Source of the DNA: a phage
Direction: 5' to 3' (one strand)
Length of the DNA: 37,440 bases
Assembly: GCA_025289735.1 (NCBI GenBank)
Contig: GCA_025289735.1_4764.1
Shown here: positions 5,707 to 36,485 of the stretch, piece by piece
Numbering within the stretch: the first letter of the stretch is position 1
Layout: each line of letters opens with the position of its first letter
Notes under the pieces: model-generated
What the model was told of the DNA's origin: nothing
The model's input: the letters and a program-made list of their open reading frames with translations, nothing else
The model's database searches: none
Position numbers and translations under genes: made by a program

Positions 5707-5734
5707 ATTATACACACTTTATCTTAAATGTCAA
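5707..5734 (-). promoter_or_regulatory. sigma70-type early promoter (-35 TTGACA, 16-bp spacer, -10 TATAAT)
   Basis: Plus strand reads attata(5707-5712) and tgtcaa(5729-5734); perfect hexamers on minus strand directly after the gp43 stop. Confidence 0.6.
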
Positions 5735-8402
5735 ACAGGTCTGTAAGAGATGCCACTTTTTCATATTGCAGCTTTGCAGCCGTGGTAATGTTCTCCAGTG
5801 GTTTGACGAAAGTCTTATTAAACAACAAAGGCCAGTCTAACCACTTTAACACCTCTGATTCAATTTCTGGCGGAATACGAGTACCAGACAACCAACCAAA
5901 ACAGATTTCTCCAAACGGATTTCGATCTTTCAGCGGTACAATCATAACCTTCTCGCCCTCACGAATCGGATCTAGTCCGAATTTTCGAGCATTACGATTA
6001 TAACACAATACACTCTTAACCGCATACGGACAACCCTTAATCGGATACCCGTTTGAATCGCTGTATTTCTGTAGGTTGTTTGCAGATGATACCGCAGCAA
6101 CATCAAGATAGTCAAGTTTTCTAAATTCTTGCTCAAAAATACCGTAGTATTCCTGCAATGAATCTTCACCTTCCTGCAACATACGGCGAATACATTCTTT
6201 CAGTGATTTCTGACATGCTTTAGGGGTGGAGCTACGTTGCGTTTCCAAGCCCATGATTTTTAGCTTAGGTTCAGCAAAGCGCGTTCCTTCCATATCCCAA
6301 ACATTAAGAGCATAACGCTTTTTACCAGTCCAGAATCCACCGATACCCGCAGATTTCAACGGAGGACCAGCAATTGCCTCTCGGTCCATAAACATCAAGT
6401 GCTCATAGTTGTTCATGTACTCGCATAACTCGCGATATCCCTTGTCGATAATAGGTTCCATTCGATGTTTACCGAAATTATCAAGGAAGTCAACAAGTTT
6501 TTCGGTATCGTCGAAACGGTCTTCCCCGCCAACCTTATCAATAACATTGTTAACCAGCACATAAACGGAGTCAGTATCACAATAACGAACATATGCAAAA
6601 TCAGTCGTTCCGCAAAGCTCGTTTAAGTATTCGTTAATCTTACGCTCAATCCACTGAATTGCAAGCTGACCGAACAGTGTGATCGCACTAGCGTTACGGA
6701 GATCATAAAAACGGAATTTAGGATTCCCCAACGCACCATAAAGGGAGTTGATCAAAACTTTTCGAGAAAGCTGGTTTGTATTGCACAAGATCGACTCGTC
6801 TTTACATTCTTCCAGCAATTTCTCTAAGGCATCTTTACTTAATTCAGAAAGCATCGATTTAAACGCTTCATCGAAGTCGTGACGCACTTCAACGCTATAG
6901 CTAATGGTTCCCCCATAAACATGATTTTCATCGTGTAGAATCGCTTTACATAGTTCAGCATTGCGATCACATGCCAACATCATGTTTTTGTACTGCTTAC
7001 GCTGATCGAATACCTTTTTAATCTCAATCGGTACGATACCATGAATATCTTTTCTATACATCCACCCGTTAGGCGAGCAAGAATACTCATCACTCGGACG
7101 TGGTGCAGTTTTATTGATATACTCGTGCATCGGTGCAGCATCAAAAGATCCGGCGATTGTTTCCGGCGAAATATTAACCTGTCGAATAATAGATGGATAC
7201 AGACTGGTTAAGTCAAAGCTCATCATCCAACGGTAAGCATTCGGCACAGGTTCTTTTACGAATGCGCCTGGATACGTCTGCTTAGGCTGTATCTTGTTCT
7301 CTGGTACTACTTTACCCTCAGCTTTCAGAGATCCGAAGATAATAGCATCCCATACTTTCATCGGGTTATAAACATGGTTAAATTTAATCTTTGCATAGAA
7401 ACATAGACTATACACAAGATCGATAAATCCACGCTTTTTATCAATCGCCAGCACACGATCAACGTCGCCGATGTTATAATCGATGTAAAGTTGATGGTTG
7501 TCATCACGCAATTTCTTTAACGGACCATCATAATCAACCTTACCGATTCCTGTCTCATATTCAGCAACATAATCTAACGCATATGTTGGTTGAGTCGTAA
7601 AGCTAAATTTCTTGTACAGGTCAATATAATCAAGGCTTTCGATCCCCATGATCGTAAATGCTTCACGCTCGTTTCCAAAATCATCCTGTGAGATTCTGGA
7701 TTTAATCTTACCGCACGGGCTTAGACGGTTAGCGGTTCTACTTCCGAACTTATTACTGATACGTTTAATGATATATGGAATATCGAATGTTTCTGTGTTC
7801 CAGCCAGTGAAACCAACGGGTCGGTTTTCCTCAAAGAATCGGATGTATTCTAACAGCAATTCATCTTCTGTGTCATAGACGTTATAAACAACGCGCTCTA
7901 CGATATCAGGTCGAAGAATAGACTTGCTTGCTTCCCATGATTCACCGTTTTTTCCTTTCAAATCAAATACAAAGAAACGGTCATGTACGGAATCATAATG
8001 CGTAATTGCATCGATAGGATATTTCGCTTCTTCTGGTTTAGGAAATTCTGGGGCAGTGACCTCAATATCAACCCATGCTACACGGATTTTATTTCGGTCA
8101 TATCGAATCTCTCCTTTATACGTATCGGACAGATAGGAGATGATAAAATCATCCATCCCTAGTGCCTCTTGCCCCATCTCCCCCATCTTTTTACGCCATT
8201 TGTTGGCCTCGTTCATAGAGGGGAATTTTTTAGCAATGCAAGGCTTGCCATAGATATCTTTATAATTTGTAACCATACCAGGCGCGGCATGATGAAATAA
8301 AGTTGGCGTATATTCAACGTAACGCTCTTGTTCTTGTCCAGCATCATCAATATAACGCTCGTAGATCTTATCACCTACTCGCTCACATGACAGAAAATAC
8401 AT
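5724..8402 (-). CDS. 43: DNA polymerase (T4 gp43, family B)
   Basis: Long colinear identity to T4 gp43 (ERYID, DIYGK, KFPSM, DAITHYD, SFDLTSLYPSIIRQVNISPETIAG, INSLYGALGN, YCDTDS, FMDREAIAGPP, GGFWTGKKRYALNVWDMEG, KIMGLETQ). Track start 8432 is a GTG upstream of the promoter; I place the start at ATG 8402 with GAAGGAG SD. Confidence 0.95.
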   Translation of the reverse strand: MYFLSCERVGDKIYERYIDDAGQEQERYVEYTPTLFHHAAPGMVTNYKDIYGKPCIAKKFPSMNEANKWRKKMGEMGQEALGMDDFIISYLSDTYKGEIRYDRNKIRVAWVDIEVTAPEFPKPEEAKYPIDAITHYDSVHDRFFVFDLKGKNGESWEASKSILRPDIVERVVYNVYDTEDELLLEYIRFFEENRPVGFTGWNTETFDIPYIIKRISNKFGSRTANRLSPCGKIKSRISQDDFGNEREAFTIMGIESLDYIDLYKKFSFTTQPTYALDYVAEYETGIGKVDYDGPLKKLRDDNHQLYIDYNIGDVDRVLAIDKKRGFIDLVYSLCFYAKIKFNHVYNPMKVWDAIIFGSLKAEGKVVPENKIQPKQTYPGAFVKEPVPNAYRWMMSFDLTSLYPSIIRQVNISPETIAGSFDAAPMHEYINKTAPRPSDEYSCSPNGWMYRKDIHGIVPIEIKKVFDQRKQYKNMMLACDRNAELCKAILHDENHVYGGTISYSVEVRHDFDEAFKSMLSELSKDALEKLLEECKDESILCNTNQLSRKVLINSLYGALGNPKFRFYDLRNASAITLFGQLAIQWIERKINEYLNELCGTTDFAYVRYCDTDSVYVLVNNVIDKVGGEDRFDDTEKLVDFLDNFGKHRMEPIIDKGYRELCEYMNNYEHLMFMDREAIAGPPLKSAGIGGFWTGKKRYALNVWDMEGTRFAEPKLKIMGLETQRSSTPKACQKSLKECIRRMLQEGEDSLQEYYGIFEQEFRKLDYLDVAAVSSANNLQKYSDSNGYPIKGCPYAVKSVLCYNRNARKFGLDPIREGEKVMIVPLKDRNPFGEICFGWLSGTRIPPEIESEVLKWLDWPLLFNKTFVKPLENITTAAKLQYEKVASLTDLFDI

Positions 8403-8434
8403 AATATAAACTCCTTCACTTACGAAAGACACTC

Positions 8435-8463
8435 ATTATAGGGGAATCGACCTAGTTTGTCAA
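8435..8463 (-). promoter_or_regulatory. sigma70-type promoter upstream of gene 43 (-35 TTGACA, 17 bp, -10 TATAAT)
   Basis: Plus strand attata(8435-8440) and tgtcaa(8458-8463), between regA stop and gp43 start. Confidence 0.6.
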
Positions 8464-8484
8464 TACCCCTATCCCATCAGTATC

Positions 8485-8847
8485 TTATCGCCCGATCTGA
8501 TATTTCTCGATCAGTGTCCATTCTTCTTTCTGTTTGAAAGACAATACACGGAAATTATTAACTTCGGTAGTTTCAAAATCACTATCAATCAGGGTACACA
8601 GATTCCACTGCGCAAGAAGTTTTGCAATGTTATTACGGCGTAATTCATCTTCCCACGTCATTTTAACACTACGACCATCTAATTTCAACAACTCCTTGAA
8701 ATGAACGATGTAATAGCGCCCCTTCTTCTGGAGAATATGACAAGACTGATACAGTGTCTTGTCTCGATTGTTGGCAATGCCGCAGCGGGTTAAAGTTTCC
8801 TTAATTTTAAGGAAGTTTTCAGGACTAATCAAATTAATTTCAATCAT
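8485..8847 (-). CDS. regA: translational repressor RegA
   Basis: 120 aa; near-identity blocks to T4 RegA (FLKIKETLTRCGIANN, LYQSCHILQKKG, YYIVHFKE, NNFRVLSFKQK). Confidence 0.9.
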   Translation of the reverse strand: MIEINLISPENFLKIKETLTRCGIANNRDKTLYQSCHILQKKGRYYIVHFKELLKLDGRSVKMTWEDELRRNNIAKLLAQWNLCTLIDSDFETTEVNNFRVLSFKQKEEWTLIEKYQIGR

Positions 8848-8848
8848 T

Positions 8849-9427
8849 TTACCACCTTTCTATAATCTTTTTAAGTCGTTTCCTTTCTGTCTGATTCTTA
8901 GTAACACCCGCCAAAAGTTCATCGGTCGCATACGGTTTAATGTGCTTCAATAACTTGTCCATATATCCCTTTTCATTAGCCAAATCGAGATAAAACCGGG
9001 CGTCATCCATATTTACACAATATGCTTTCGCCACTGCCATTAAAACCAATTTTTGGTCCAATTCTTCTGTTAGTTTAGCCCATTTACCGTATCGTTTCCC
9101 CTTAGAAATACTCTGTAAGAGATAATCAAAATGCATTTGATCTGGGAGGCCATGACCGATTAAATTCATCACATACGCGCTATATAGGCAATCTGCGTGC
9201 TGGGAAAGAGCGGTGTTAATCCATCTCTGGTTATATGCAGAATTGTTTCCCACATTAACGCGCTGTTTATCTAAGGTGATATGATCCATCAGAGCAAATA
9301 ATGCATTGTCGGTTTTCTCGGTGAATGTGTCAGCTAATTCAGACACCTTTTCCCAATCACGAGAGCGCCATGCAATTTCATGCTCGTTTAATTGTGTATC
9401 ATCTTCACCGAAAAATTGACCTAACAT
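8849..9427 (-). CDS. 62: clamp loader small subunit (T4 gp62)
   Basis: 192 aa; matches T4 gp62 (QLNEHEIAW, AYVMNLIGHGL, KGKRYGKWAKL); start overlaps gp44 stop. Confidence 0.85.
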   Translation of the reverse strand: MLGQFFGEDDTQLNEHEIAWRSRDWEKVSELADTFTEKTDNALFALMDHITLDKQRVNVGNNSAYNQRWINTALSQHADCLYSAYVMNLIGHGLPDQMHFDYLLQSISKGKRYGKWAKLTEELDQKLVLMAVAKAYCVNMDDARFYLDLANEKGYMDKLLKHIKPYATDELLAGVTKNQTERKRLKKIIERW

Positions 9428-10401
9428 TATACGAACTCCAATTCAACCATTAATTGCATTAACAAAAAGACAATGTGAATCTCTTTATCAGCCGCGTGCG
9501 CAAACATCTGATTATTTTCACCGATAATCTCAGTGAGACGAATAATAGAAGCTGGCTTAACTTGAGTATACAACTCATTATAAAGTTTCTTGACAAATTG
9601 AGCGTATGTATTGGTATAGCGCGGTGCGAGTTTACGCACATTAGCAAACTGTTTAGTTTTAAGTGCTTCCACCACATCGGTTACTTCGGTATTGCTACTT
9701 TCGATAACCATACTCAATACGCCAGCATCAATTTTACCATGTTTAGCGTAGCGGTCCAAAAGTTTCATTACGCGCCGGAAGTCTGGGAAGTTCTGCTTAA
9801 CCAATTCCGCTAATACGCGCATTTCTTCTACTGGTACACCTTCTTTATCAAGAATTGCCTTACACCGGACGATCATTTCTTTCATCATGCGAAGCTGATC
9901 ATCTTTAGTCGGAGATCCAAACGTGATGGGATCAAATCGAGATCGTAACGCTGGGATAATACCTTCTAGATCGTTTGCTGTGATAATGAATGTCACGTTG
10001 TTTGAGTATGCCTCAGAGAAACTACGCAAGTGTCTTTGAGCATCAGCCAACCCCGCTCGGTCATACTCATCGATAATAACAACTTTGCCTTTTTCTCGTT
10101 TTTCTTCATCGAGTGATACACTCTGCGCAAAGCGTGTAATCTCATCGCGGATAAAATCAATCTTACAATCTGCGCCGTTAACAAACAGATAATCAACACC
10201 CACATCTTCGCAAAGCGCCTTAGCAACGGTTGTTTTACCAGTACCCGGCGATGGGCTATGCAGAATCATTGAAGGGATTCGTCCTTGCTTAACAATCTGC
10301 GCGAAGATCTTTTTATCTGCTTCCGGCAGAATACATTCAGAAATTGATTTCGGACGGTATTTCTGTTCCCACTGAAACTCGTTTTCATTAACACTCAGCA
10401 T
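9427..10401 (-). CDS. 44: clamp loader large subunit, AAA+ ATPase (T4 gp44)
   Basis: Walker A HSPSPGTGKTTVAKALC, Walker B VIIDEYDR, SRF sensor; strong identity to T4 gp44. Track start is GTG at 10416; ATG at 10401 has GAGAGGTGA SD and aligns with the T4 N-terminus. Confidence 0.95.
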   Translation of the reverse strand: MLSVNENEFQWEQKYRPKSISECILPEADKKIFAQIVKQGRIPSMILHSPSPGTGKTTVAKALCEDVGVDYLFVNGADCKIDFIRDEITRFAQSVSLDEEKREKGKVVIIDEYDRAGLADAQRHLRSFSEAYSNNVTFIITANDLEGIIPALRSRFDPITFGSPTKDDQLRMMKEMIVRCKAILDKEGVPVEEMRVLAELVKQNFPDFRRVMKLLDRYAKHGKIDAGVLSMVIESSNTEVTDVVEALKTKQFANVRKLAPRYTNTYAQFVKKLYNELYTQVKPASIIRLTEIIGENNQMFAHAADKEIHIVFLLMQLMVELEFV

Positions 10402-10439
10402 ATAATCACCTCTCACAAATTACATCATTAAAAAGGGGA

Positions 10440-10464
10440 GTATTTACACTCCCCACAAACATTA
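10440..10464 (-). terminator. intrinsic terminator-like hairpin between gene 45 and gene 44
   Basis: Minus strand GGGGAGTgtaaatACTCCCC followed by TTTTT, 3 nt after the gp45 stop. Confidence 0.45.
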
Positions 10465-10466
10465 TA

Positions 10467-11153
10467 TTAGTCGGTGTAGCTGGAGTCAAGGTCACACGCG
10501 ATCATATAAGATACGGTTTCACTTGCCAGCCATACAGCCTTACGGCGAGTGAAGCTCAGTTTGTAATCGCCGAAGTCAGTAGCAACCAGTTTCATGTTAT
10601 CTTTACGAATAAAGAAATGGAAGTCTGCGGTTCCGGTATATTCGCCCATATCAAGACAAAACATCTCATTAGGATTATTTTTGTCAATCTCTTCCCAGCC
10701 TTTGATCATCAGACGACCATCAATCGGAAGAAATTCAAGGCGATCCACTTTAAGCTGATTGCTCATTTTCATAAGCTGTTTCAGATCGTCGTTGCTCAGT
10801 TCGTAATCTACATCGCTTGCAGGTGGAGTAACTCGGCCTTTCGGTGATACGATAGCGGCAGCACTAGCACCAGGGTAATTAATTTTCAGACGATCATTAG
10901 ACACACGAATGTTTCCGGTGCGGTCATCAACCGTAATATCTGCTTCATCGCCTACCAGATTCAGAATACCCAAGAAAGAGTTAAGATCATAGATCCCAAT
11001 TTCGTGTTCCAGTTCTTGATTCAGAGTCGCTTCACCATATACAACGTTTGTCATGTTTTTGGTGATCAGGACGTTTCCTTTTTTCAGGATGATACCTGGG
11101 TTAATAGCGGAAAAGTTTTTCAGGGTAGCAATGGTTTCTTTAGTCAGTTTCAT
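10467..11153 (-). CDS. 45: sliding clamp (T4 gp45)
   Basis: 228 aa from ATG 11153 (AAGGTGA SD); identity to T4 gp45 (MKL.K.T.A.LKNF, IYDLN.FLGIL.LV). Confidence 0.9.
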   Translation of the reverse strand: MKLTKETIATLKNFSAINPGIILKKGNVLITKNMTNVVYGEATLNQELEHEIGIYDLNSFLGILNLVGDEADITVDDRTGNIRVSNDRLKINYPGASAAAIVSPKGRVTPPASDVDYELSNDDLKQLMKMSNQLKVDRLEFLPIDGRLMIKGWEEIDKNNPNEMFCLDMGEYTGTADFHFFIRKDNMKLVATDFGDYKLSFTRRKAVWLASETVSYMIACDLDSSYTD

Positions 11154-11183
11154 CAAATCACCTTTATCATGTTAATCAATTAA

Positions 11184-11576
11184 TTACGGGTTTACTTCGT
11201 GCTCATTTTGAATCTTTAGCATTCTTTCGATAAATTTTTTCTCGGCTTCCTTATCGGATGAGTGAGTATACTTCAATCCAATGTAAGCTGTCAAGTATTG
11301 TTGTAGAGCATAGACAGTAACCGGATTCTTTGCGGTCTTTTTGCCGTCGAGATATACCAGATCACCACGAACATCAAACGCAAGTTTACGACGAATTACA
11401 TCATCAACAAATTTATCTAGGACAAAATACCACTCAATACATTCTATCCCGTGACGGTAGTTCATTACATCATTATCTTTGATATAGTCAAACGGAATAT
11501 GACATAATTTACGATTTTGTAGGATGAATAGCATTTGTTCTTTTAAGCTCATACGTTTCATTCTATCACTTCCCAT
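11184..11576 (-). CDS. hypothetical protein, positional equivalent of T4 rpbA
   Basis: ORF track (132 aa with TTG start); internal ATGs at 11576 and 11561, so start is uncertain. No motif-level assignment. Confidence 0.45.
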   Translation of the reverse strand: MGSDRMKRMSLKEQMLFILQNRKLCHIPFDYIKDNDVMNYRHGIECIEWYFVLDKFVDDVIRRKLAFDVRGDLVYLDGKKTAKNPVTVYALQQYLTAYIGLKYTHSSDKEAEKKFIERMLKIQNEHEVNP

Positions 11577-11943: not shown

Positions 11944-11967
11944 AATATTAATCTCCAAAATAAAATC

Positions 11968-29305: not shown

Positions 29306-29313
29306 GTTATACC

Positions 29314-30557: not shown

Positions 30558-30567
30558 TATATAATCC

Positions 30568-30861: not shown

Positions 30862-31075
30862 CAAATTCTAAGAAATATTCTGGAACGATATAACCGTTAA
30901 AGTCATTGCACTTATAAAAATGTGGTGCATTCAATGCTGGATGAGCATTAGTAAAGAGTTTACCCTCTAGAAACAGAATGTAATTAATAGGTCTAATACC
31001 GACAGAATCAGGGTCTAAACCTTTTTCTTTCAGTTCAGCCAGCGTTAAAACTCGTCCAGATCGTAACTTAGCCAT
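30854..31075 (-). CDS. hypothetical protein (73 aa)
   Basis: ORF track; ATG 31075 with GGGGGT SD. Confidence 0.5.
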   Translation of the reverse strand: MAKLRSGRVLTLAELKEKGLDPDSVGIRPINYILFLEGKLFTNAHPALNAPHFYKCNDFNGYIVPEYFLEFDD

Positions 31076-31361
31076 GATTTACCCCCAATTCATCAAGATT
31101 ATGTCGCAGCATTTCAGAGTATTTTTCTACTTCCTTGATCTTAGTGTGGATCTCCACGATCTCATCTTCACTATCAGAAAGTTTAATGGCAATTGCTAGC
31201 GTGCTTTTACCAGCTTTCATAGTCTCTTTACGTTCAACCAATAGATCCGCGTGTTTCAGTAGCAGTTCTTCACGTCGAACATAAGCGACGGTCAAAGCCT
31301 CATCAGCGATTTCTAAAGCATTTTCAGCGACACCAACAACCATTTTACGAGTAGACAGCAT
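31068..31361 (-). CDS. hypothetical protein (97 aa)
   Basis: ORF track; ATG 31361 with GAGGTGA SD. Confidence 0.5.
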   Translation of the reverse strand: MLSTRKMVVGVAENALEIADEALTVAYVRREELLLKHADLLVERKETMKAGKSTLAIAIKLSDSEDEIVEIHTKIKEVEKYSEMLRHNLDELGVNHG

Positions 31362-31375
31362 AAATTCACCTCACA

Positions 31376-31684
31376 TTATTTCACGTTAACGCCGTCATCA
31401 ATCCAGCCGACGCTATTTTGTTTAACAGTTTTACCATAGGATGCATACTTAATCAAGCATGGTTTAACATCATTATCAAATCTTCCTAAACGTACTCCCA
31501 AATCAGGAATATCCATGTATGCGGCTTTATATCCCCATGTGCCGTATTCAGAATCAATCTCAACCGGACGGCCTTTAAAAGCATACACTACACCGTGACG
31601 GTCAACGATAACATAGCGATAGCCAGCCGGAAGATACACAGTTTCGCCGTAAACTTTAACTGGAGTAGCAGAAGAGATAAACAT
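31376..31684 (-). CDS. hypothetical protein (102 aa)
   Basis: ORF track; ATG 31684 with GAGGA SD, downstream of promoter 31719..31747. Confidence 0.55.
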   Translation of the reverse strand: MFISSATPVKVYGETVYLPAGYRYVIVDRHGVVYAFKGRPVEIDSEYGTWGYKAAYMDIPDLGVRLGRFDNDVKPCLIKYASYGKTVKQNSVGWIDDGVNVK

Positions 31685-31718
31685 AATATAATCCTCACAT
31701 CGTTCATTTGATGCGGTT

Positions 31719-31747
31719 ATTATAGGATAACCGCATTTTCATGTCAA
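31719..31747 (-). promoter_or_regulatory. PeSL-like early promoter (-35 TTGACA, 17 bp, -10 TATAAT; hairpin GCGGTTATcctataATAACCGC)
   Basis: Plus strand attata(31719-31724) and tgtcaa(31742-31747). Confidence 0.65.
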
Positions 31748-31754
31748 CAGTTTT

Positions 31755-32063
31755 TTAAAAATCTTCTTCCGGTTTATATCGACCGTCATCGACTGGTTTT
31801 GGAGTAAATCCTTTATGCGTGCGCGGCTTCGCTTCCGGTTTACCAGCAATCATCAAACCAAAACATTTCAGCCCCTTATAACACATAACAATATCAACCA
31901 CGGTCCACGTTATAGGCCATACGATTGCAGCAATACAAAATGCTCCTGTATCGACCTCTTTGGTGTCCTTGTCGAATCTGGCGTACAAGCAGAATACTAG
32001 ATACGAGATCATTGCACCAGCAGCCCAGATATAAAGCACATTAACAATATCTTGTGTTGTCAC
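31755..32063 (-). CDS. hypothetical membrane protein (~102 aa, two predicted TM segments)
   Basis: Track ORF 31755..32129 has a TTG start overlapping the upstream gene; an in-frame GTG at 32063 sits 5 nt after a perfect AAGGAGG SD. Hydrophobic stretches IWAAGAMISYLVFCL and AFCIAAIVWPITWTVVDIVM. Confidence 0.45.
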   Translation of the reverse strand: MTTQDIVNVLYIWAAGAMISYLVFCLYARFDKDTKEVDTGAFCIAAIVWPITWTVVDIVMCYKGLKCFGLMIAGKPEAKPRTHKGFTPKPVDDGRYKPEEDF

Positions 32064-32073
32064 ATTATCCTCC

Positions 32074-32352
32074 TTACATGTCTTGCAGTGCATAAAAGCA
32101 TTTTTCTTCGTAGTCATAGAAAATGTCAAAGTATGCCTTTTCTACATACTCACCATTGATCCAAGCGGCAGTTACAATCAGAGTGGTCCAGTTAGATCCG
32201 CTCTCAACGGTAAAGGTTTTAATACCCAGCTTCACAGCAAGGTCACGCGCAAACTGGTCGCAACCACGGCAGGAAGTGATATTGGAAGTTTTGATTTTAA
32301 AGCCACCGCGAGTTTTAGAAATTTCTACTTTAGCGAAAGACAGGTTGCTCAT
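32074..32352 (-). CDS. hypothetical protein (92 aa)
   Basis: Track start 32409 lies inside the promoter; ATG 32352 has AAGGAG SD. Leader sequence resembles that of gene 34954..35175. Confidence 0.5.
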   Translation of the reverse strand: MSNLSFAKVEISKTRGGFKIKTSNITSCRGCDQFARDLAVKLGIKTFTVESGSNWTTLIVTAAWINGEYVEKAYFDIFYDYEEKCFYALQDM

Positions 32353-32394
32353 TTTGATTCTCCTTAAGAAAGTGTGTTTCGTTTTGATGTGTGT

Positions 32395-32423
32395 AGTATA
32401 GGGGATCACCGATCCCCTGTCAA
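32395..32423 (-). promoter_or_regulatory. PeSL-like early promoter (-35 TTGACA, 17 bp with palindrome GGGGATCGGTGATCCCC, -10 TATACT)
   Basis: Plus strand agtata(32395-32400) and tgtcaa(32418-32423); spacer palindrome has two GATC sites. Confidence 0.6.
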
Positions 32424-32440
32424 CAACTTTTTTTATGATT

Positions 32441-32695
32441 TTAGTGAATTAACTCTACACCAAAATGAGGCACAGAGAACGCCTTACGAAACACATATTC
32501 ATCATGTTTAGGAATCGCGCCTAACCTCTCTATTTCGCTCGCTAACACGATAAACTGTTTATCCGGTGCATTTACCTTATATGCTTCAACAACGCACGGA
32601 AAACGCGTTTTAGAGAGTTCAGGATAGTTTTCTGACTCCATCAGGACAATGAATACTCTGTTACATTGATTGTAGAATCCTGTTTTTGATTTCAT
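32441..32695 (-). CDS. hypothetical protein (start uncertain)
   Basis: Track ORF 32441..32761 overlaps the paralog at 32661..32999 in another frame; shortest version starts at ATG 32695. No strong SD. Confidence 0.35.
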   Translation of the reverse strand: MKSKTGFYNQCNRVFIVLMESENYPELSKTRFPCVVEAYKVNAPDKQFIVLASEIERLGAIPKHDEYVFRKAFSVPHFGVELIH

Positions 32696-32999
32696 CAAGT
32701 TTTCTTCTCTGTACAATTCGTGCAATCTTCCTTTCATGATTTCGTTGGTTCTTGTCTTCACAGTTTACCCACTCAACAAGATCTTTACCTAACTCGAAAG
32801 CCCATTCTCGGTCTTGCTTTACGTTTTGTAGGTATGGACTTTCCGACACTCTACGAAGTGATGTTGTCGTAACAAGAATGACCCCAGGAATGGTCGGATG
32901 TTCCTTGCCATAAACAATAGGACGCGAGTCACTATCAATACCTTGTAAGAAGGTGTATCCTGAATCATTTAGAATCATATACATTTTCATTTCACACAT
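32661..32999 (-). CDS. small-protein family member ('GYTF' family), longest copy
   Basis: N-terminus MKMYMILNDSGYTFLQG resembles MKIEIIDRAGYTFMEK (32999..33256) and MKIKIEIFDDGGYSFMKG (33275..33478); ATG 32999 with GAGGAAA SD, overlapping upstream stop. Confidence 0.5.
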   Translation of the reverse strand: MCEMKMYMILNDSGYTFLQGIDSDSRPIVYGKEHPTIPGVILVTTTSLRRVSESPYLQNVKQDREWAFELGKDLVEWVNCEDKNQRNHERKIARIVQRRKLDEIKNRILQSM

Positions 33000-33256
33000 C
33001 ACAGTTTCCTCAACCAGTTATTAAAGCGAGTAAACCATGATGCTTTTCGTGCTTCTTTTACTTTATATGCACGCAAACCACTGAAACACCATTCATAATC
33101 ATCACTGAAACATGATTCAACAGGAACACCCGCATTTCGTAGTTCTCTGGTCTTTATCATGAATCCTTGACATAAGGGGCGACCTTCAACAATGATAGGA
33201 AGTTTAACTTTTTCCATGAAAGTATACCCAGCACGGTCAATAATTTCAATCTTCAT
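32999..33256 (-). CDS. small-protein family member ('GYTF' family, 85 aa)
   Basis: GYTFMEKVKLPIIVEGRP core; ATG 33256 with conserved leader GAGGATTATATT. Confidence 0.55.
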   Translation of the reverse strand: MKIEIIDRAGYTFMEKVKLPIIVEGRPLCQGFMIKTRELRNAGVPVESCFSDDYEWCFSGLRAYKVKEARKASWFTRFNNWLRKL

Positions 33257-33274
33257 AATATAATCCTCAATTGA

Positions 33275-33478
33275 TTACACTTCCCAGGCTTCTTTGCTAA
33301 GAAAACACCATTTATACTCAGGAGAATAACCTTTAATCGGTACTCCGGCTTTTTGTAATTCCTGCGTTTCAACAACATAATCATGCCCATACGGTCGGCC
33401 TTCCACGATGATAGGAAGTTTAACACCTTTCATGAAAGAATATCCACCATCGTCAAAAATTTCAATTTTAATTTTCAT
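33275..33478 (-). CDS. small-protein family member ('GYTF' family, 67 aa)
   Basis: GYSFMKGVKLPIIVEGRP core, matching the copy at 32999..33256; GGAGA SD. Confidence 0.55.
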   Translation of the reverse strand: MKIKIEIFDDGGYSFMKGVKLPIIVEGRPYGHDYVVETQELQKAGVPIKGYSPEYKWCFLSKEAWEV

Positions 33479-33501
33479 TTTACATTATCTCCATAGTTCT
33501 T

Positions 33502-33723
33502 TCAATCAATATCAATTTCACCAGCACGAACATCTAGGATAAGATGCGGTAGGTGTATGCAATTTTCCCAACCAATGCGCTTCATTTCTTCTACGGTAAC
33601 GTAAGCCCACCCGTTCGCTGTAATAAAGTCTACTTCAACCTTGAGAGGAAAGCAAGACTTTTCTATGTTTTCAAATCCGATAATGTGTTTTGTCGTTGAA
33701 TATGGAATATATCCGGTGATCAT
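33502..33723 (-). CDS. hypothetical protein (73 aa)
   Basis: ORF track; ATG 33723 overlaps stop of upstream gene (ATGA). Confidence 0.5.
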   Translation of the reverse strand: MITGYIPYSTTKHIIGFENIEKSCFPLKVEVDFITANGWAYVTVEEMKRIGWENCIHLPHLILDVRAGEIDID

Positions 33724-34154
33724 TTTGTGATCTCCTTATACTCAACACACCATAAGCGGGTAGCCCATGATAAACGCTCATAACGCTGGCAGAAATCGGA
33801 CCATAGATATTGTGCACCGTTCGGCATAGTTGAAATATGCGTTTTCTCTCCAACTTTCACGAAAGAAGTATTCGATTTTGTGATCTCGACCGGAGTATAT
33901 CCGAAAGCTGGTTCCAAGTCAACATCTGAACTAAATGCCAATTTAACAGAATTTGTTTTTCTGACCGCTGTCCGGTTTCCTTCTGGGTATAGCACAGCAG
34001 GTTTAGCGCCTAAGCGGATAAACTCAGTGTTTTTAATAAACAGAATATCATGATAACCGTCATATTCCGACACTTCCATAGTAACAGGAAAATCGACATG
34101 TGCTAAACCTGGTAGATCTCGCATATCATGAAAGGTCGCCATCAACTTTTTCAT
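33720..34154 (-). CDS. hypothetical protein (144 aa); C-terminal domain paralogous to 34165..34383
   Basis: C-terminal VEITKSNTSFVKVGEKTHISTM..YLWSDFCQRYERLSWATRLWCVEYKEITK matches IVITKSNMSFVEVGEHTHITTM..YIWSSFCKSYELLSWAIDVWKIEYEVITEE; GAGGAA SD. Confidence 0.55.
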   Translation of the reverse strand: MKKLMATFHDMRDLPGLAHVDFPVTMEVSEYDGYHDILFIKNTEFIRLGAKPAVLYPEGNRTAVRKTNSVKLAFSSDVDLEPAFGYTPVEITKSNTSFVKVGEKTHISTMPNGAQYLWSDFCQRYERLSWATRLWCVEYKEITK

Positions 34155-34176
34155 TCTATATTCCTCACTCTTCTGT
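34151..34176. repeat. 26-bp perfect direct repeat, copy 1 (tcattctatattcctcactcttctgt)
   Basis: Identical to 34380..34405; covers start codon and SD of two paralogous genes, marking a tandem duplication. Confidence 0.8.
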
Positions 34177-34383
34177 AATTACTTCATATTCAATTTTCCA
34201 TACATCAATCGCCCAGCTTAAAAGCTCATACGATTTACAGAAAGATGACCAAATATACTGTTTTCCGTGCATCGTTGTTATGTGTGTATGCTCACCAACT
34301 TCAACGAAAGACATATTTGACTTTGTGATAACTATAGGAATGCGACCGAAAGGTGGCGGTATTACTGATTCGTTGGTCTTCAT
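34165..34383 (-). CDS. hypothetical protein (~72 aa), paralog of the C-terminal domain of 33720..34154
   Basis: In-frame ATG 34383 carries the same SD/leader as its paralog (track ATG 34410 lacks an SD). Confidence 0.5.
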   Translation of the reverse strand: MKTNESVIPPPFGRIPIVITKSNMSFVEVGEHTHITTMHGKQYIWSSFCKSYELLSWAIDVWKIEYEVITEE

Positions 34384-34405
34384 TCTATATTCCTCACTCT
34401 TCTGT
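34380..34405. repeat. 26-bp perfect direct repeat, copy 2
   Basis: Identical to 34151..34176. Confidence 0.8.
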
Positions 34406-34591
34406 TTCATTTCTTTTATATGGTACTATAACAGGATTAATACAGCAAGCACCAATTACGTTATGAGCACCACAATTTAAGCATTTATAATCATGGAACT
34501 TATTAAGGAATCGCCCGAACTCATAACCGACTAACGCCGCGTGTACTTGAGTCTCGATCTCATCCATATCAGCCAATGTTTTAACCTTCAT
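34394..34591 (-). CDS. hypothetical Cys-rich small protein (~65 aa)
   Basis: ATG 34591 with conserved leader GAGGATTATATT (track ATG 34630 lacks it); contains CLNCGAHNVIGACC. Confidence 0.45.
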   Translation of the reverse strand: MKVKTLADMDEIETQVHAALVGYEFGRFLNKFHDYKCLNCGAHNVIGACCINPVIVPYKRNETEE

Positions 34592-34601
34592 AATATAATC
34601 C

Positions 34602-34892
34602 TCAAATACTGGTTTTGCGAAGATGGTCATTACATGCTTTTAATGCATCAGTCGAGGTGTCATAGCGAGTATTATCATAGCACCAATAACCATCTGTCAA
34701 CTGATAAATTAATCCATCCTTTTTAGCGTCGATGAAAGACAATTCTTTGAAAGTTTCTACTTTCTTTGCTGATACTCCACGGTCACGGCGTTTATAGAGT
34801 TTAGCTAAAACGCGTTCAGCTTGTTCCTCTTTATCGCCAGACAGATCCCAGATGACGTTTCTGATATGCTTGATTAATTGTTCAGTGGTCAT
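34602..34892 (-). CDS. hypothetical protein (96 aa)
   Basis: ORF track; ATG 34892 with AAGGAG SD downstream of promoter 34922..34949. Confidence 0.5.
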   Translation of the reverse strand: MTTEQLIKHIRNVIWDLSGDKEEQAERVLAKLYKRRDRGVSAKKVETFKELSFIDAKKDGLIYQLTDGYWCYDNTRYDTSTDALKACNDHLRKTSI

Positions 34893-34921
34893 ATTTGATT
34901 CTCCTTAGTTGGTATGGTTAT

Positions 34922-34949
34922 CATTATACGGGGATTTCTCCCCGTGTCA
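34922..34949 (-). promoter_or_regulatory. PeSL-like early promoter (-35 TTGACA, 16 bp with palindrome CGGGGAGAAATCCCCG, -10 TATAAT)
   Basis: Plus strand attata(34922-34927) and tgtcaa(34944-34949); spacer palindrome identical to that at 15259..15274. Confidence 0.65.
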
Positions 34950-34953
34950 ACAA

Positions 34954-35175
34954 TTAAATGATCTCTGCTTCACCGTTAAGGAAGAAGGACCAAGTTTTGT
35001 TAGGATAACGAAGCGCCCATGATTCAGCAGTTTTAACACCAGCTTCGAACAATTGACGGCTGGTTACTTTAGCCATACCATCTTCGATGGCAACGTTTTC
35101 AATAATCATCGGGTACTTAGCGCCACGCATGAAACCGAAGCCAGCGGAAGATTTGATGATTTTAACAGTTGCCAT
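34954..35175 (-). CDS. small-protein family member (73 aa), GYTF-like
   Basis: Track start lies upstream of the promoter; ATG 35175 with AGGAGA SD. MATVKIIKSSAGFGFMRGAKYPMIIEN resembles the GYTF/GYSF copies. Confidence 0.5.
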   Translation of the reverse strand: MATVKIIKSSAGFGFMRGAKYPMIIENVAIEDGMAKVTSRQLFEAGVKTAESWALRYPNKTWSFFLNGEAEII

Positions 35176-35214
35176 TTTTGATTCTCCTAGAAAGTGTCGT
35201 GTTTCGATGGGTGT

Positions 35215-35243
35215 ATTATGCAATAACACCGGATCGCTGTCAA
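35215..35243 (-). promoter_or_regulatory. sigma70-type early promoter (-35 TTGACA, 17 bp, -10 CATAAT)
   Basis: Plus strand attatg(35215-35220) and tgtcaa(35238-35243). Confidence 0.55.
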
Positions 35244-35261
35244 CACTTTCTAAGAAAAATT

Positions 35262-35546
35262 TTAAATTAATCGAATATAACCAAGAATTTCAGCGCCTTT
35301 AGCCAGTCCTAAAACTTCCCATTCAAGGTCGCCGTAGTCATAATTTGCAACCATCAACTGACCATTTTTCATGCAGCAATCATGAGAGAAAATTTGCCCC
35401 GCATAAACTACGATAGTAATAAACTTTCCTGATTCTGGCGGTGTGGAAGACAAAGCGACCATATGACCATTCAGCTTAGTAACCAGTGATGGAACAATAA
35501 AATTCGGGCTTACCTTAATACCGTTAAATTCGTTTGTGTCTTTCAT
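35262..35546 (-). CDS. hypothetical protein (94 aa)
   Basis: ORF track; ATGA overlap with upstream gene. Confidence 0.5.
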   Translation of the reverse strand: MKDTNEFNGIKVSPNFIVPSLVTKLNGHMVALSSTPPESGKFITIVVYAGQIFSHDCCMKNGQLMVANYDYGDLEWEVLGLAKGAEILGYIRLI

Positions 35547-35893
35547 GCCAGACCTCGCAAAACACTAATAGCATAATCATGCTGGTTATTCATAATATCA
35601 ATTGCATTGTGATAACGAGCTAAACCATCAAGGATAAATTCTTGTTTATCCTGTTTCAGTTTGGTATCACGCGCAGCCATAAGAGCATCAAGAACAGGTC
35701 CAAAGTGATTATCTAATTCATCTTCGGTTGCAATGTTTCCTATTGCCTCGTCGATCCGTGATTCTAATGCTTGCTTTTCGTTGATCACTTGCTGGGTATA
35801 TTCCAACACATCAAGAATATCGCGGGTAACGTCGCCATGATAAGGTATTCCCGCATGAAGATGATCAATTAATCGCTGAATATCAATGTTCAT
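35543..35893 (-). CDS. hypothetical protein (116 aa)
   Basis: ORF track; GAGGAGGG SD; ATGA overlap with upstream gene. Confidence 0.5.
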   Translation of the reverse strand: MNIDIQRLIDHLHAGIPYHGDVTRDILDVLEYTQQVINEKQALESRIDEAIGNIATEDELDNHFGPVLDALMAARDTKLKQDKQEFILDGLARYHNAIDIMNNQHDYAISVLRGLA

Positions 35894-36228
35894 TTGTAAC
35901 CCTCCTCTGAAAGCACATCCCAGATCGTTGAGTCAAGGTGCATTAAATTCCACATAATAGAGTCATAACTACCGAAGCCAGAAGTAAAAATTACATCACA
36001 CTGGCGATATGTCTTATGAAAATCGGTGGCTGTCTCTGCATCAATCGGCATATCGTCACCTGAAAGCACCAGACATTTAAGAATCATAACTCTGTTAGCC
36101 GTTGGCGCTTGCTTAGTCTTTTCAGCATATTTTTCGATGATCCGTTTTGCCTTTTCTTCTTTGATACGTCCAGACCAAATCCGGTTTCGGTATTGATTCA
36201 TAATAATTTCAATCACATCATTTTGCAT
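35890..36228 (-). CDS. hypothetical protein (112 aa)
   Basis: ORF track; ATG 36228. Confidence 0.5.
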   Translation of the reverse strand: MQNDVIEIIMNQYRNRIWSGRIKEEKAKRIIEKYAEKTKQAPTANRVMILKCLVLSGDDMPIDAETATDFHKTYRQCDVIFTSGFGSYDSIMWNLMHLDSTIWDVLSEEGYK

Positions 36229-36427
36229 TCTTCACGGTCTCCATAATTGTTTTGTAAGCCAGCTTAAGATGATCACCGAAAAACTTTGCAGTGTTACCCT
36301 TCGGATCGCGGAGCATGGTTTCTACGATCTCATCGGCAGTAACAATTTCTCCTTTCTTTGCTGCATGTTCTACCATATACTTCAAAGTTTCTTCGGAAGC
36401 AAGTGCTGCGGCTACTGGATTAATCAT
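36218..36427 (-). CDS. hypothetical protein (69 aa)
   Basis: ORF track; AAGGAGAA SD; first gene after promoter 36457..36485. Confidence 0.5.
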   Translation of the reverse strand: MINPVAAALASEETLKYMVEHAAKKGEIVTADEIVETMLRDPKGNTAKFFGDHLKLAYKTIMETVKNAK

Positions 36428-36456
36428 TTTGGTTCTCCTTTGTTGTCGATGTGTGC

Positions 36457-36485
36457 ATTATGCTATACCATATTCCGGTTGTCAA
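36457..36485 (-). promoter_or_regulatory. sigma70-type early promoter (-35 TTGACA, 17 bp, -10 CATAAT)
   Basis: Plus strand attatg(36457-36462) and tgtcaa(36480-36485); part of the module also present at 23816..23915. Confidence 0.6.

Follow-up and report, generated by a model that had tools for sequence, protein, structure and literature searches.

Arbiol et al. 2010 (PMC2839356) defined promoter-early stem-loops (PeSLs) in phages RB49 and phi1, and Comeau et al. 2014 (PMC4122927) built on that description. In the PeSL paper, g43 is flanked by these elements on both sides and nrdD is PeSL-associated. Promoter activity was measured for RB49 PeSL206/205 and terminator activity for the stem-loop of RB49 PeSL211/210, the sole such stem-loop tested; a spacer-type stem-loop lowered the expression of downstream lacZ to an extent similar to that of the rrnB T1 terminator (PMC2839356), in a reporter assay that cannot entirely tell termination from destabilisation. 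Experiments in RB49 and phi1 also detected mini-circles, and less than 50 bp of homology is cited in the PeSL paper as enough for T4-type recombination. A search of the accessible literature turned up no 5'-end mapping for phages of the RB49 type.

The window analyzed here, a stretch of 37,440 nucleotides from GCA_025289735.1, belongs to Krischvirus, i.e., the RB49/Phi1/JSE-like T4-type coliphages, with which it shares 96–98% nucleotide identity. All its genes lie on the minus strand, its intergenic share is 4.6% (1,729 bases), and in the variable region neighbouring genes mostly overlap or are at most 14 nt apart. The promoter/stem-loop cassettes of the window are positional orthologues of those in RB49, Phi1 and JSE, and its arrangement at g43 and nrdD is that of the PeSL paper. 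The cassette at 32395–32423 is near-identical to RB49 PeSL211/210 (4 gaps and 1 mismatch over 85 columns) and contains the first 34 bases of PeSL206/205 (AAAGTTGTTGACA...CCCCTATA) unchanged. Further, the RefSeq records of RB49 and GEC-3S annotate promoters and terminators at junctions matching the window's cassettes. The preliminary description had pointed to PeSLs of T4-type phages; the citation is real and concerns the window's own phage group (PMC2839356, PMC4122927). We are highly confident that the window's motifs are these very cassettes, published for the group to which it belongs; the finding is therefore correct and not new.

A strict pattern, TTGACR-N16/17-TAWAMT, has 11 matches in the window, all on the minus strand, against 0.11 expected by chance; none of 100 shuffles of the sequence reached 11. 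At a threshold of at least 11/12 hexamer matches, the minus strand has 21 sites and the plus strand none. The -10 box is intergenic in 11 of the 21, each with a start codon 27–60 nt downstream. Equal density inside coding sequence had been named beforehand as grounds for rejecting the finding; at this threshold the density is ~6.4/kb in intergenic and 0.28/kb in coding DNA, a ~23-fold excess, and the density test therefore does not refute it. However, the intragenic promoter-like copies are themselves ~20-fold above chance and conserved; besides the cassettes, ~10 conserved sites of this kind, without a hairpin, lie within genes.

The preliminary description had listed 14 minus-strand promoter sites, and a sigma70-like motif is present at all 14 coordinates. 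Its pattern, TTGAC(A/G)-N16/17-TA(T/A)A(A/C)T, fits ten of them; three are one base off in the -10 box (TAAGAT at 27584, CATAAT at 35215 and 36457) and 11968 is weak. The site listed at 34922 exists, its true coordinate being 34923, and the list omitted both the eleventh strict match, at 12726 within gene 46, and a good intergenic site at 10461–10489. An AT-rich upstream element is clear only at the variable-region cassettes, and core-region sites differ. A stereotyped Shine-Dalgarno sequence and start codon follow 27–45 nt after the promoter; at the g44 cassette the distance is 60 nt.

Hairpins of -8 kcal/mol or stronger accompany 71% of 17 intergenic promoter-like sites, as against 9% in each of two controls, 1,000 random coding windows and the intragenic promoter-like sites (association with intergenic sites, Mann-Whitney P = 2.6e-7). 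When folds were compared with dinucleotide shuffles, 13 of 14 regions gave z-scores between -1.8 and -5.6, the exception being 35215 (z = -0.7). Thus, the motifs are non-random, strand-specific, intergenic, hairpin-associated and orthologous to published PeSLs. All the palindromes quoted earlier were recovered: CGGGGAGAAATCCCCG at two places (15259–15276 and 34928–34945), GGGGATCGGTGATCCCC at 32400–32418 and GGGAGTATGCTATAATACTCCC at 26344–26365. The hairpin is found within the spacer at four sites and across the -10 box at five (one of the latter weak).

The hairpin occupies the spacer interior in four minus-strand cassettes: upstream of ORF038 (15253–15281, TTGACG-17-TATACT, z = -3.4; hairpin CGGGGA-GAAA-TCCCCG at 15259–15276), upstream of ORF053 (22680–22708, TTGACG-17-TATACT, z = -2.9; hairpin GGGGATC-GCGA-GATCCCC at 22686–22703), upstream of ORF070 (32395–32423, TTGACA-17-TATACT; hairpin GGGGATC-GGT-GATCCCC at 32400–32418) and between ORF080 and ORF078 (34923–34950, TTGACA-16-TATAAT; again CGGGGA-GAAA-TCCCCG, at 34928–34945). 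GEC-3S has a promoter annotated at the orthologue of the ORF053 cassette, and divergence between ORF054 alleles stops at the AT-rich region just upstream of it.

Hairpins lie across the -10 box in the minus-strand cassettes upstream of ORF057 (26344–26377, TTGACA-16-TATAAT, z = -3.1; 8-bp stem GGGAGTAT/ATACTCCC at 26344–26365), frd.2 (27579–27612, TTGACA-17-TAAGAT, z = -2.9; GGAGTA/TACTCC at 27579–27596), ORF060 (28486–28522, TTGACA-17-TAAAAT, z = -3.2; 9-bp stem at 28486–28509), ORF068 (31711–31747, TTGACA-17-TATAAT, z = -5.6; 10-bp stem ATGCGGTTAT/ATAACCGCAT at 31711–31736) and ORF080 (35210–35243, TTGACA-17-CATAAT). In the last the promoter is conserved and the sole hairpin, at 35210–35230, is weak, bulged and not significant. 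This makes it a poor member of the list, as is the weak candidate upstream of rpbA (11968–11996, minus strand, TTGCAA-17-TATACT, 9/12), whose place among the cassettes is doubtful and for which we found neither a convincing hairpin nor an AT-rich upstream region. The ORF060 and frd.2 cassettes are paralogues (family D4, 72% identity over 79 nt).

At two sites a canonical terminator stands upstream of the -35 box. The minus-strand cassette between nrdD and ORF055 (23845–23910) combines the promoter TTGACA-16-TATAAT (23845–23872) with an intrinsic terminator, AGCCGATCC-GAAA-GGGTCGGCT plus a T-run, at 23889–23910, and G2494 and GEC-3S carry terminator and promoter annotations there. That upstream of ORF084 (36457–36525, minus strand, z = -3.9) has TTGACA-17-CATAAT at 36457–36485 and an intrinsic terminator with a 12-bp stem and T-run at 36498–36525; the two cassettes are ~83% identical over 100 nt. 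Two further hairpins lie downstream of the -10 box. One is the 12-bp hairpin at 5679–5707 (z = -4.0), directly downstream of the -10 box of TTGACA-16-TATAAT (5707–5734), in the minus-strand cassette downstream of g43 and upstream of ORF025 (5679–5734), which coincides with a "hypothetical early promoter" in the RB49 RefSeq record. The other belongs to the omitted site, the minus-strand cassette between g45 and g44 (10435–10489, TTGACT-17-TATAAT), where GGGGAGTGTAAATACTCCCC at 10435–10454 is followed by TTTTT. Finally, upstream of g43 (8435–8472, minus strand, TTGACA-17-TATAAT at 8435–8463, z = -4.1), a two-tier hairpin at 8438–8472, with ATAGGGG...CCCCTAT around ATTGAC...GTCGAT, spans the region from -35 to -10. 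RB49 has early promoters annotated at both of the latter cassettes.

We propose that each cassette would be a strong host sigma70-type early promoter (near-consensus TTGACA, 16–17 nt, TATAAT), usually preceded in the variable region by an AT-rich stretch, fused to a G/C-rich stem-loop. Unmodified host RNA polymerase would start ~7 nt downstream of the -10 box immediately after infection and drive a short early-gene block of one to ~10 genes, while the stem-loop, folding in the RNA from the upstream block, would terminate or attenuate readthrough; consecutive gene blocks would therefore be partly insulated. That the same hairpin can terminate upstream transcripts, as suggested earlier, is supported by the PeSL211/210 terminator test in RB49 (PMC2839356), and by analogy with the tested elements we infer promoter and terminator activity for each cassette of the window, including those with hairpins across the -10 box that lack a U-tract. 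The earlier picture, one cassette for each small gene, is not borne out: ~41 genes are shared among the 10 variable-region cassettes, the units comprising 4, 1, 9, 2, 8, 2, 1, 2, 2 and 10 or more genes, and only two of the ten are single-gene units.

Most hairpins within the spacer or across the -10 box have no U-tract following them, and are therefore not canonical intrinsic terminators. This would also fit stem-loops whose main effect is on RNA stability or processing rather than termination: they would guard upstream messages against exonucleases at the 3' end and, where they lie downstream of the -10 box, shield the 5' end of the new message, or they would mark processing sites. GNRA-type tetraloops (GAAA, GCGA), frequent among the hairpins, are in line with such a role, as is the position of the hairpins at 5679–5707 and 10435–10454 at the extreme 5' end of their own promoter's predicted transcript. 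We consider this unlikely, given the canonical terminators with T-runs in three cassettes (23889–23910, 36498–36525 and 10435–10454) and the rrnB T1-like effect of the spacer-type stem-loop on lacZ (PMC2839356), even if that assay distinguishes the two incompletely.

Counting differences per aligned cell over 12 related genomes shows both parts of the cassette to be under purifying selection. The hexamers hardly vary, with 3 changes in 1,332 cells (1/666 in the -10 and 2/666 in the -35 box). Stems, at 0.017 differences per cell, change ~5-fold less than loops (0.108), non-stem spacer (0.092) or third codon positions (0.086). Among orthologues we found no double compensatory change in the stems, as against 12 one-sided wobble changes and 13 breaks; hence, selection on structure and on sequence are not separated at this level. 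An A-to-G change in the ORF068 stem in seven relatives retains the pair as a G.U wobble, and the frd.2 stem has lost one pair in the window copy that is kept in 12/12 relatives. Conservation without covariation also fits palindromes read as DNA, either as a repressor operator that shuts off the early promoters, or as a cruciform or hairpin recognized by a phage nuclease or recombinase, with the cassettes as active recombination sites. The recurrence of one 16-nt palindrome at two unrelated loci (15259–15276 and 34928–34945) and the PeSL authors' speculation on a GGGG...CCCC-binding protein point the same way. Nevertheless, this reading is very improbable: at least five unrelated stems occur, the place of the hairpin with respect to the hexamers ranges over ~80 nt, the GATC sites that some stems contain show no intergenic enrichment (6 observed vs 10.3 expected), and the PeSL literature knows of no recombinase in RB49-type phages. 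Among paralogous cassettes, stems that share their placement with respect to the -10 box differ in sequence, e.g., TGCGGTTAT vs GGGAGTAT; the cassettes keep structure rather than one sequence.

The promoter/stem-loop model further holds that homologous recombination of the phage may occasionally cross over at cassettes, so that blocks are added, removed or relocated; the 60–100 nt of similarity among paralogous cassettes would make them occasional crossover points. The role in modular gene shuffling suggested earlier is weakly borne out. Nine structural differences separate the window from its 12 relatives, and one or two are cassette-linked: the g38 indel, by both breakpoints, and one other with a breakpoint near a cassette. 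The remainder comprise homing-endonuclease insertions (two of the nine), recombination at tandem paralogues or short ribosome-binding-site repeats, and within-gene replacements; two events used promoter-free repeats, of 80 nt (paralogues ORF073/074) and of 27 nt (a ribosome-binding-site repeat). Breakpoint enrichment at cassettes is not significant for these nine events (P = 0.05–0.2). Such a record accords with compaction as the reason for co-location: promoters and stem-loops, each functional, would overlap because 4.6% intergenic DNA leaves no other place, with no mobile cassette or special shuffling role, and shuffling would be driven by homing endonucleases, paralogue recombination or any short repeat. 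The ~10 conserved intragenic promoters without a hairpin and five hairpins without a promoter, which show the two parts to be separable, fit this too, as does the phyletic range of the family of the 36457–36525 cassette, which is confined to 59 Krischvirus records (3–5 copies per genome) and was not found outside the genus.

We regard compaction alone as possible and rather less probable than not, since the gain or loss of the g38 adhesin gene maps clearly to a cassette. The 34923–34950 cassette lies between the two breakpoints, 34916 and 34954; this allele replaces the terminator-g38-terminator-promoter block of most relatives and leaves a g38-less junction found in 14/58 Krischvirus records. 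Homology resumes between the -10 box and the Shine-Dalgarno sequence, the very crossover zone of the mini-circles in the PeSL literature; at this locus it is present at the right-hand junction only. Near-identical paralogues, up to ~85 nt and thus well above the cited <50 bp, sit in different variable regions, and the mini-circles detected in RB49 and phi1 likewise favor crossover at cassettes. At the ORF080/078 junction a hairpin adjoins the promoter in both alleles, the hairpins being unrelated, which suggests that the alleles are functionally equivalent.

Separated parts of the cassette also occur on the minus strand. Between a-gt.4 and g47 lies a degraded "half" cassette (16308–16397), in which a strong terminator (16361–16388) is followed by TGATATAGT, which resembles an extended -10 and lacks a -35 consensus; in RB49 the edge of the gap holds an inserted HNH endonuclease gene. 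A 13-bp stem-loop with a GAAA loop upstream of g55 (17458–17487), overlapping the end of ORF044, has neither promoter consensus nor T-run. An intergenic stem-loop with a T-run and no promoter lies between ORF057 and nrdD (25795–25815), where G2494, GEC-3S and Makalu_003 have a terminator annotated. Lone stem-loops are also seen between uvsX and g40 (4361–4381, terminator-like, with a T-run) and between g41 and dc2 (2588–2603, the GC hairpin GCGCCC-TGCG-GGGCGC).

The window matched 59-65 records of the phage collection by megablast, and the close matches were all Krischvirus, i.e., RB49-like T4-type coliphages, at 98% identity for window 1-20000 and 94-97% for 20000-37440 (96-98% for RB49, Phi1 and JSE). 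The annotation of these last three was transferred to obtain a gene model of 71 genes, all on the minus strand. Window 1-20 kb constitutes the replication core (g61, g41, uvsX, g43, regA, g62, g44, g45, g46, g47 and g55), and 20-37.4 kb a hyperplastic region with nrdG, nrdD, frd.2, g49, dam, rI.-1 and rI together with about 30 small genes of unknown function. Within the latter, four consecutive genes, from the ORF048 region through ORF051 (20618-21986), have a common conserved 5' end formed by a 69-nt direct-repeat family (68-75% identical) that codes for the first ~20 residues; this indicates a tandem paralogous gene family, and frd.2 and ORF059 are likewise paralogues. The tetranucleotide GATC occurs 223 times in the whole window versus 132 expected from base composition, and the phage has its own Dam methylase gene at 29314-30126.

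The preliminary description had listed 14 minus-strand sites as cassettes of a sigma70-like promoter, in most cases with a hairpin, and such a promoter is present at all 14 coordinates, with the one listed at 34922 truly positioned at 34923. The strict pattern proposed for them, TTGACR-N16/17-TAWAMT, has 11 matches in the window, all on the minus strand, versus 0.11 expected. Ten of the listed sites follow it, whereas 27584, 35215 and 36457 (one -10 base off) and 11968 do not, the last of these having been correctly called weaker, with only 9/12 matches over both hexamers. The sole strict match absent from the list, at 12726, lies within gene 46, and a good site at 10461-10489 was likewise absent. 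Hexamer scoring at >=11/12 yielded 21 minus-strand and 0 plus-strand sites, six with 12/12 matches and 15 more with 11/12, all on the coding strand. The -10 is intergenic in 11 of these 21, giving a density of ~6.4 per kb in intergenic versus 0.28 per kb in coding sequence; the equal coding density that had been named as a refutation of the idea is therefore not seen, the coding density being lower. Shuffles, codon shuffles and the strand asymmetry rule out a chance origin of the motif.

Ten cassettes are situated in the 17.4-kb variable region and five in the 20-kb replication core, where the sites flank g43 and g44. The -10 of each cassette is wholly intergenic and ends 27-60 nt before the start codon, and a GGAG or GAGG precedes the downstream start codons. 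For the 14 listed sites, the Shine-Dalgarno sequence and start codon follow at a distance of 27-45 nt. Mean AT content is 66% in the 20 nt upstream of the -35, versus 60% window-wide (P = 0.03). This AT-rich stretch is clear in 8 of the ten variable-region cassettes (65-85% AT) and absent at two cassettes with an upstream terminator, as well as at four of the five core-region sites (45-55% AT), the exception being 15253-15281 (75%).

All the palindromes quoted in the preliminary description were found in the window. With a simple hairpin search, a hairpin of -8 kcal/mol or stronger was recovered at 71% of 17 intergenic promoter-like sites, as against 9% of 1,000 random coding windows, 9% of 32 intragenic promoter-like sites and 4% of shuffled cassette regions (hairpin strength at intergenic promoter-like sites versus random coding windows, Mann-Whitney P = 2.6e-7). 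Folding with ViennaRNA against dinucleotide shuffles gave z of -1.8 to -5.6 in 13 of 14 regions, with an unremarkable fold for the 35215 region (z = -0.7). Thirteen of the 15 cassettes, all except 35215 and 11968, possess a hairpin of -7 kcal/mol or stronger in a position known from PeSLs (promoter-early stem-loops; see below). The hairpin is in the spacer at 15253, 22680, 32395 and 34923, across the -10 at 26350, 27584, 28494 and 31719 (weakly also at 35215), a canonical terminator upstream of the -35 at 23845 and 36457, just downstream of the -10 at 5707 and 10461, and spans the -35 to the -10 at 8435. A canonical U-tract follows the stem in only three cassettes (23889-23910, 36498-36525 and 10435-10454); lone hairpins with a U-tract are found at 25795-25815, 16361-16388 and 4361-4381. 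The nine spacer or across-the--10 hairpins lack a U-tract, the next sequence being, e.g., ATAATGATAA or ACTTAACAAC. Against known RNA families (Rfam at gathering thresholds), the window gave no match. We also considered Dam-methylation control via the GATC in GGGGATC stems and dropped it, since intergenic GATC is not enriched (6 observed versus 10.3 expected).

To assess conservation, 12 related genomes were projected onto the window coordinates of the variable region and differences were counted per aligned cell. The cassettes could be aligned position by position across as many as 12 genomes, with 1 difference in 666 cells in the -10 hexamers and 2 in 666 in the -35 hexamers. Stems show 0.017 differences per cell versus 0.108 for loops and 0.092 for the non-stem spacer, with 0.086 at codon position 3 and 0.027 at codon position 2. 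Thus, the hexamers are far more constrained than second codon positions, and the constraint on stems is ~5 times that on loops or neutral-like sites. This establishes clear purifying selection on both promoter hexamers and stems, on the basis of 12 genomes as against 2 previously. Among the 25 changed stem cells, pairing is kept via G.U wobble in 12 and broken in 13, eight of the latter going back to one event that affects the loop-closing pair in a single stem. The 12 relatives show no double compensatory stem changes because these orthologous genomes are too similar. Two further sequence comparisons speak for structure as opposed to a single given sequence: stems placed alike relative to the -10 are unrelated between paralogous cassettes, and the junction of ORF080 and ORF078 occurs as two alleles with unrelated hairpins, each kept beside the promoter.

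PeSLs were defined in the coliphages RB49 and phi1 (Arbiol, Comeau, Kutateladze, Adamia & Krisch 2010, PMC2839356) as a repeated motif comprising a promoter identical to the sigma70 consensus, an AT-rich region upstream of it, and a stable, frequently polyG...polyC stem-loop in one of five positional subclasses, namely upstream of the -35, over the -35, in the spacer, over the -10 or downstream of the -10, with the spacer and over-the--10 positions the most frequent. Each element lies between the stop codon of the gene upstream and the Shine-Dalgarno sequence plus start codon of the gene downstream. A genome has ~51-52 of them, for the most part ahead of ORFans in hyperplastic regions; g43 has PeSLs on both sides and nrdD is PeSL-associated (PMC2839356). 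The window agrees with this description, with the AT-rich region clear mainly in its variable part. Its cassettes come from the same genus and share the TTGACA-N17-TATAAT consensus, the GGGG...CCCC stem type, the stem-loop positional classes (spacer, across the -10, upstream and downstream), the intergenic placement from stop codon to Shine-Dalgarno/ATG and the enrichment in the hyperplastic region. They are positional orthologues of the RB49/phi1 elements and near-identical paralogues of the experimentally tested ones, without a difference in kind. For instance, over 85 alignment columns cassette 32395-32423 differs from RB49 PeSL211/210 by 1 mismatch and 4 gap positions, and its first 34 bases, including the -35 and the whole spacer hairpin, are identical to PeSL206/205. 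The latter had a promoter activity of about 13,000 Miller units, and the PeSL211/210 stem-loop cut downstream lacZ expression about as much as rrnB T1 (PMC2839356). Differences in detail are that cassette 34923-34950 is an allele lacking g38 and is absent from RB49, phi1 and JSE, and that the stem at 27579-27596 is one pair shorter than in 12/12 relatives.

We therefore identify the cassettes, with high confidence, as the published PeSLs of RB49/phi1. The citation offered for them in the preliminary description is borne out, in that two papers (PMC2839356 and PMC4122927) describe such cassettes; its observation is confirmed and its interpretation is essentially right for elements that are already known and partly annotated in public records. 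The RB49 RefSeq record has a "hypothetical early promoter" at 5707-5734, 8435-8463, 10461-10489 and two intragenic sites, whereas the GEC-3S record annotates promoters, and terminators where present, at 9 of the 10 variable-region junctions. The 91-nt terminator-plus-promoter family represented by 36440-36530 occurs in 3-5 copies in each of 59 Krischvirus records, which were its only matches. The literature searched contained no published transcription-start mapping for RB49-type phages. Since the 2010 and 2014 papers already name and describe the elements for this phage group and propose both a dual function and a role in gene shuffling, current understanding is unchanged, and the additions made here are modest, confirmatory detail.

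The consensus, position, extreme conservation and tested near-identical paralogue together indicate that the cassettes very probably function as promoters. The hairpins had also been proposed to terminate upstream transcripts, a claim that stands in part: one stem-loop of the spacer type, the class covered by the published test, blocked downstream expression experimentally, but nine hairpins have no U-tract. Given one tested paralogue, three canonical terminators and the lack of a U-tract in the others, a terminator or attenuator function is likely, if by a limited measure. Less probably, the stem-loops might have a role in RNA stability or processing. In the published model, which we take as the best explanation, host RNA polymerase would start at the cassette promoters immediately after infection, the stem-loop would fold in the RNA arriving from upstream and terminate or attenuate readthrough, and the similarity between paralogous cassettes might occasionally supply a crossover site.

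Promoter and stem-loop also occur apart from each other. Ten intragenic sense-strand sites score >=11/12 versus 0.5 expected from 200 codon shuffles, with 0 on the antisense strand, and at >=10/12 there are 30 versus 8.5 expected, with 4 antisense. The ten sites are at 3270-3298, 11265-11294, 12165-12194, 12284-12312, 19431-19459, 19522-19549, 22082-22110, 26491-26519, 28617-28645 and 34671-34700 (all minus). In the variable region the hexamers of such sites have 36 differences versus 83 expected from the codon-position background, and the next start codon is <=225 nt downstream for 9 of the ten (P = 0.0015). The hairpin search found no hairpin at any of them, and two are annotated as early promoters in RB49. 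These sites are probably simple early promoters situated within the 3' ends of the genes upstream. There are, moreover, five intergenic hairpins without a promoter, and the two kinds of solitary element together indicate that promoter and stem-loop are separable modules that are fused in many cases but not in all. The possibility of late promoters next to the lone hairpins was considered and rejected, as the T4 late-promoter motif TATAAATA is found nowhere in the window (0 versus 3.1 expected).

The claim that each small gene sits in its own cassette does not hold: the ten variable-region cassettes head units of 4, 1, 9, 2, 8, 2, 1, 2, 2 and at least 10 genes, and neighbouring genes in this region mostly overlap or are <=14 nt apart. 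Intergenic DNA amounts to only 1,729 bases (4.6% of the window), and compaction might by itself have forced promoter and stem-loop together, without any special mobility of the cassettes. Bearing on such mobility are the structural events that we delineated in the region 20000-37440 by chaining BLAST alignments against 12 relatives, which resolved into nine distinct events. Three are replacements inside genes (ORF049, ORF050 and ORF054): the sequences at 20382-20642, 21279-21423 and 23030-23221 are unalignable and of similar length in some relatives, pointing to mosaic alleles, and the ORF054 replacement has its second boundary in the AT-rich stretch directly upstream of cassette 22680-22708. 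Two are homing-endonuclease insertions, at 24908/9 in nrdD and at 29319-29321 between nrdC and dam. The window has empty homing-endonuclease sites at 16304-16308, 24908-24909 and 29319-29321; among its relatives, an HNH gene (ORF040) lies upstream of g47 in RB49, JSE has one that splits nrdD, and GEC-3S, PHB13 and Sf20 carry the nrdC-dam endonuclease gene.

The sixth event (33256-33393/33405) is the loss of ORF074. ORF073 and ORF074 (32999-33478) are tandem paralogues whose 5' ends share 80% identity over 80 nt (repeats 33177-33256 and 33393-33472), and ORF074 is missing in JSE, G2494, FL15, JK32 and G2248 with alignment overlaps of 68-80 nt, which indicate deletion by recombination between the paralogues. 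The seventh (34176-34379) is the presence or absence of a 72-aa ORF (region 34165-34383), found in the window, G2494, Makalu_003 and PHB13, and absent from RB49, Phi1, JSE, FL15 and others. On either side it has a copy of the 27-nt direct repeat ACAGAAGAGTGAGGAATATAGAATGAA (about 34151-34177 and about 34380-34406), a ribosome-binding-site/start-codon junction with no promoter inside; the event resembles a cassette indel brought about by a short promoter-less repeat. The eighth event is the g38 block at 34916-34954. The ninth (36530/36573-36645) involves a gene of ~2.1 kb (~712 aa). G2248, Brandy and JK32 have this gene intact, and in the window and RB49 only the last ~20 codons and a second weak fragment are left of it as a scar (36538-36636); a small ORF at 36605-36739 ("084.1") overlaps this scar. 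Its homology boundary coincides with the terminator hairpin in JK32 only, and we rejected the event at 36573 as cassette-associated, for it is rather the scar of the deleted gene, 48 nt upstream of the hairpin.

Thus, one of the nine events (g38) is clearly inside a cassette, one is adjacent, with a breakpoint in a cassette-bearing gap, and seven are elsewhere. Such gaps make up 4.8% of the region, giving a binomial P of 0.05-0.2 depending on the mode of event counting (n = 9). Within this 17-kb region the evidence that cassettes drive gene shuffling, 1-2 of nine events, is thin. Given one clear case, the published mini-circles and the other explanations available for most events, a substantial role of the cassettes in shuffling is possible, though we lean slightly against it.

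The clearest cassette-linked event concerns g38, a host-range gene. Of 58 Krischvirus records, 44 have g38 between ORF080 and ORF078, with a terminator on its ORF080 side and a terminator plus promoter on its ORF078 side, whereas the other 14, as well as the window, have a g38-less junction with a single promoter containing a spacer hairpin. The block absent from window 34916-34954 is 908-916 nt long and comprises a tail-fibre adhesin gene with its own terminators. Common to both alleles are TTGTTGACA, TATAATG and the whole sequence from CATACCAACTAAGGAG on; the right-hand junction thus falls between the -10 and the Shine-Dalgarno sequence, i.e., the crossover zone reported for the mini-circles of RB49/phi1. 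The left-hand junction, at the ORF080 stop codon, shows no visible homology. A 2025 paper reports that FL04, FL15 and FL20 carry gp38 near the holin gene instead, and that FL37 and FL38 do not; the former three have the g38-less junction as in the window. Hence, within the genus this host-range gene can occupy either of two places. Many other Escherichia/Shigella phage records of the collection encode a gp38 with 75-90% identity to that of RB49.

Similar composite elements are known from other systems. The PeSLs and PmSLs of T4/PST and KVP40/nt-1 (Comeau, Arbiol & Krisch 2014, PMC4122927) likewise combine a terminator with a promoter, have been assigned the same proposed role near indels of hyperplastic regions, and include "half" or degraded elements with a window counterpart at 16308-16397. 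However, their promoters read TTTACW...TAYWAT and TTGYVH...TAWWAT as opposed to the near-perfect sigma70 of the window, their stems are different with the stem-loop mostly upstream of the promoter, and some are built on MotA-dependent middle promoters. In the lambdoid morons (Hendrix et al. 2000), as summarized in PMC2839356, a gene or block likewise carries its own promoter and terminator, but the flanking signals are not thought to mediate mobility and the genes are often transcribed against their surroundings; in the window all units run in the same direction, and crossover is proposed to take place in the conserved flanks. The PeSL authors themselves drew the analogy with integrons (PMC2839356), whose attC-bounded cassettes are also small and promoter-associated, with circular intermediates and imperfect boundary palindromes. 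Yet integrons need a dedicated integrase recognizing folded single-stranded attC and their cassettes usually lack a promoter, whereas those of the window each have one and no integrase is known in these phages.

A related, improbable alternative is that the palindromes are recognized in DNA form. In its strongest version, the stem-loops would be recognized as folded DNA (cruciform or single-stranded hairpin) by a phage enzyme, which might be the junction-resolving endonuclease VII encoded in the same variable region, and would constitute an active integron-like site-specific system moving blocks such as the g38 adhesin between its two alternative locations. The conservation of stems without covariation and an identical 16-nt palindrome at two unrelated loci are compatible with such a system but do not favour it, and we regard it as very improbable.

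Two stereotyped translation-initiation modules, GAGGATTATATTATG and AGGAGAATCAAA(A)ATG, recur in the window; one set is at 4329-4350, 26317-26342, 27545-27575, 31677-31707, 33251-33279 and 34586-34607, and a contrasting set at 32344-32364, 35168-35188 and 36419-36439. The GGAG-type module is mostly found at the first gene after a cassette. In T4, GGAG within early Shine-Dalgarno sequences is the target of the RegB endoribonuclease, and we infer that the GGAG-type modules of the window may be linked to RegB targeting. Finally, the g43 leader (8406-8436, minus) has a second hairpin downstream of the promoter that pairs the Shine-Dalgarno region (GAAGGAG), which we take to be a possible translational operator for self-repression of the T4-type DNA polymerase.
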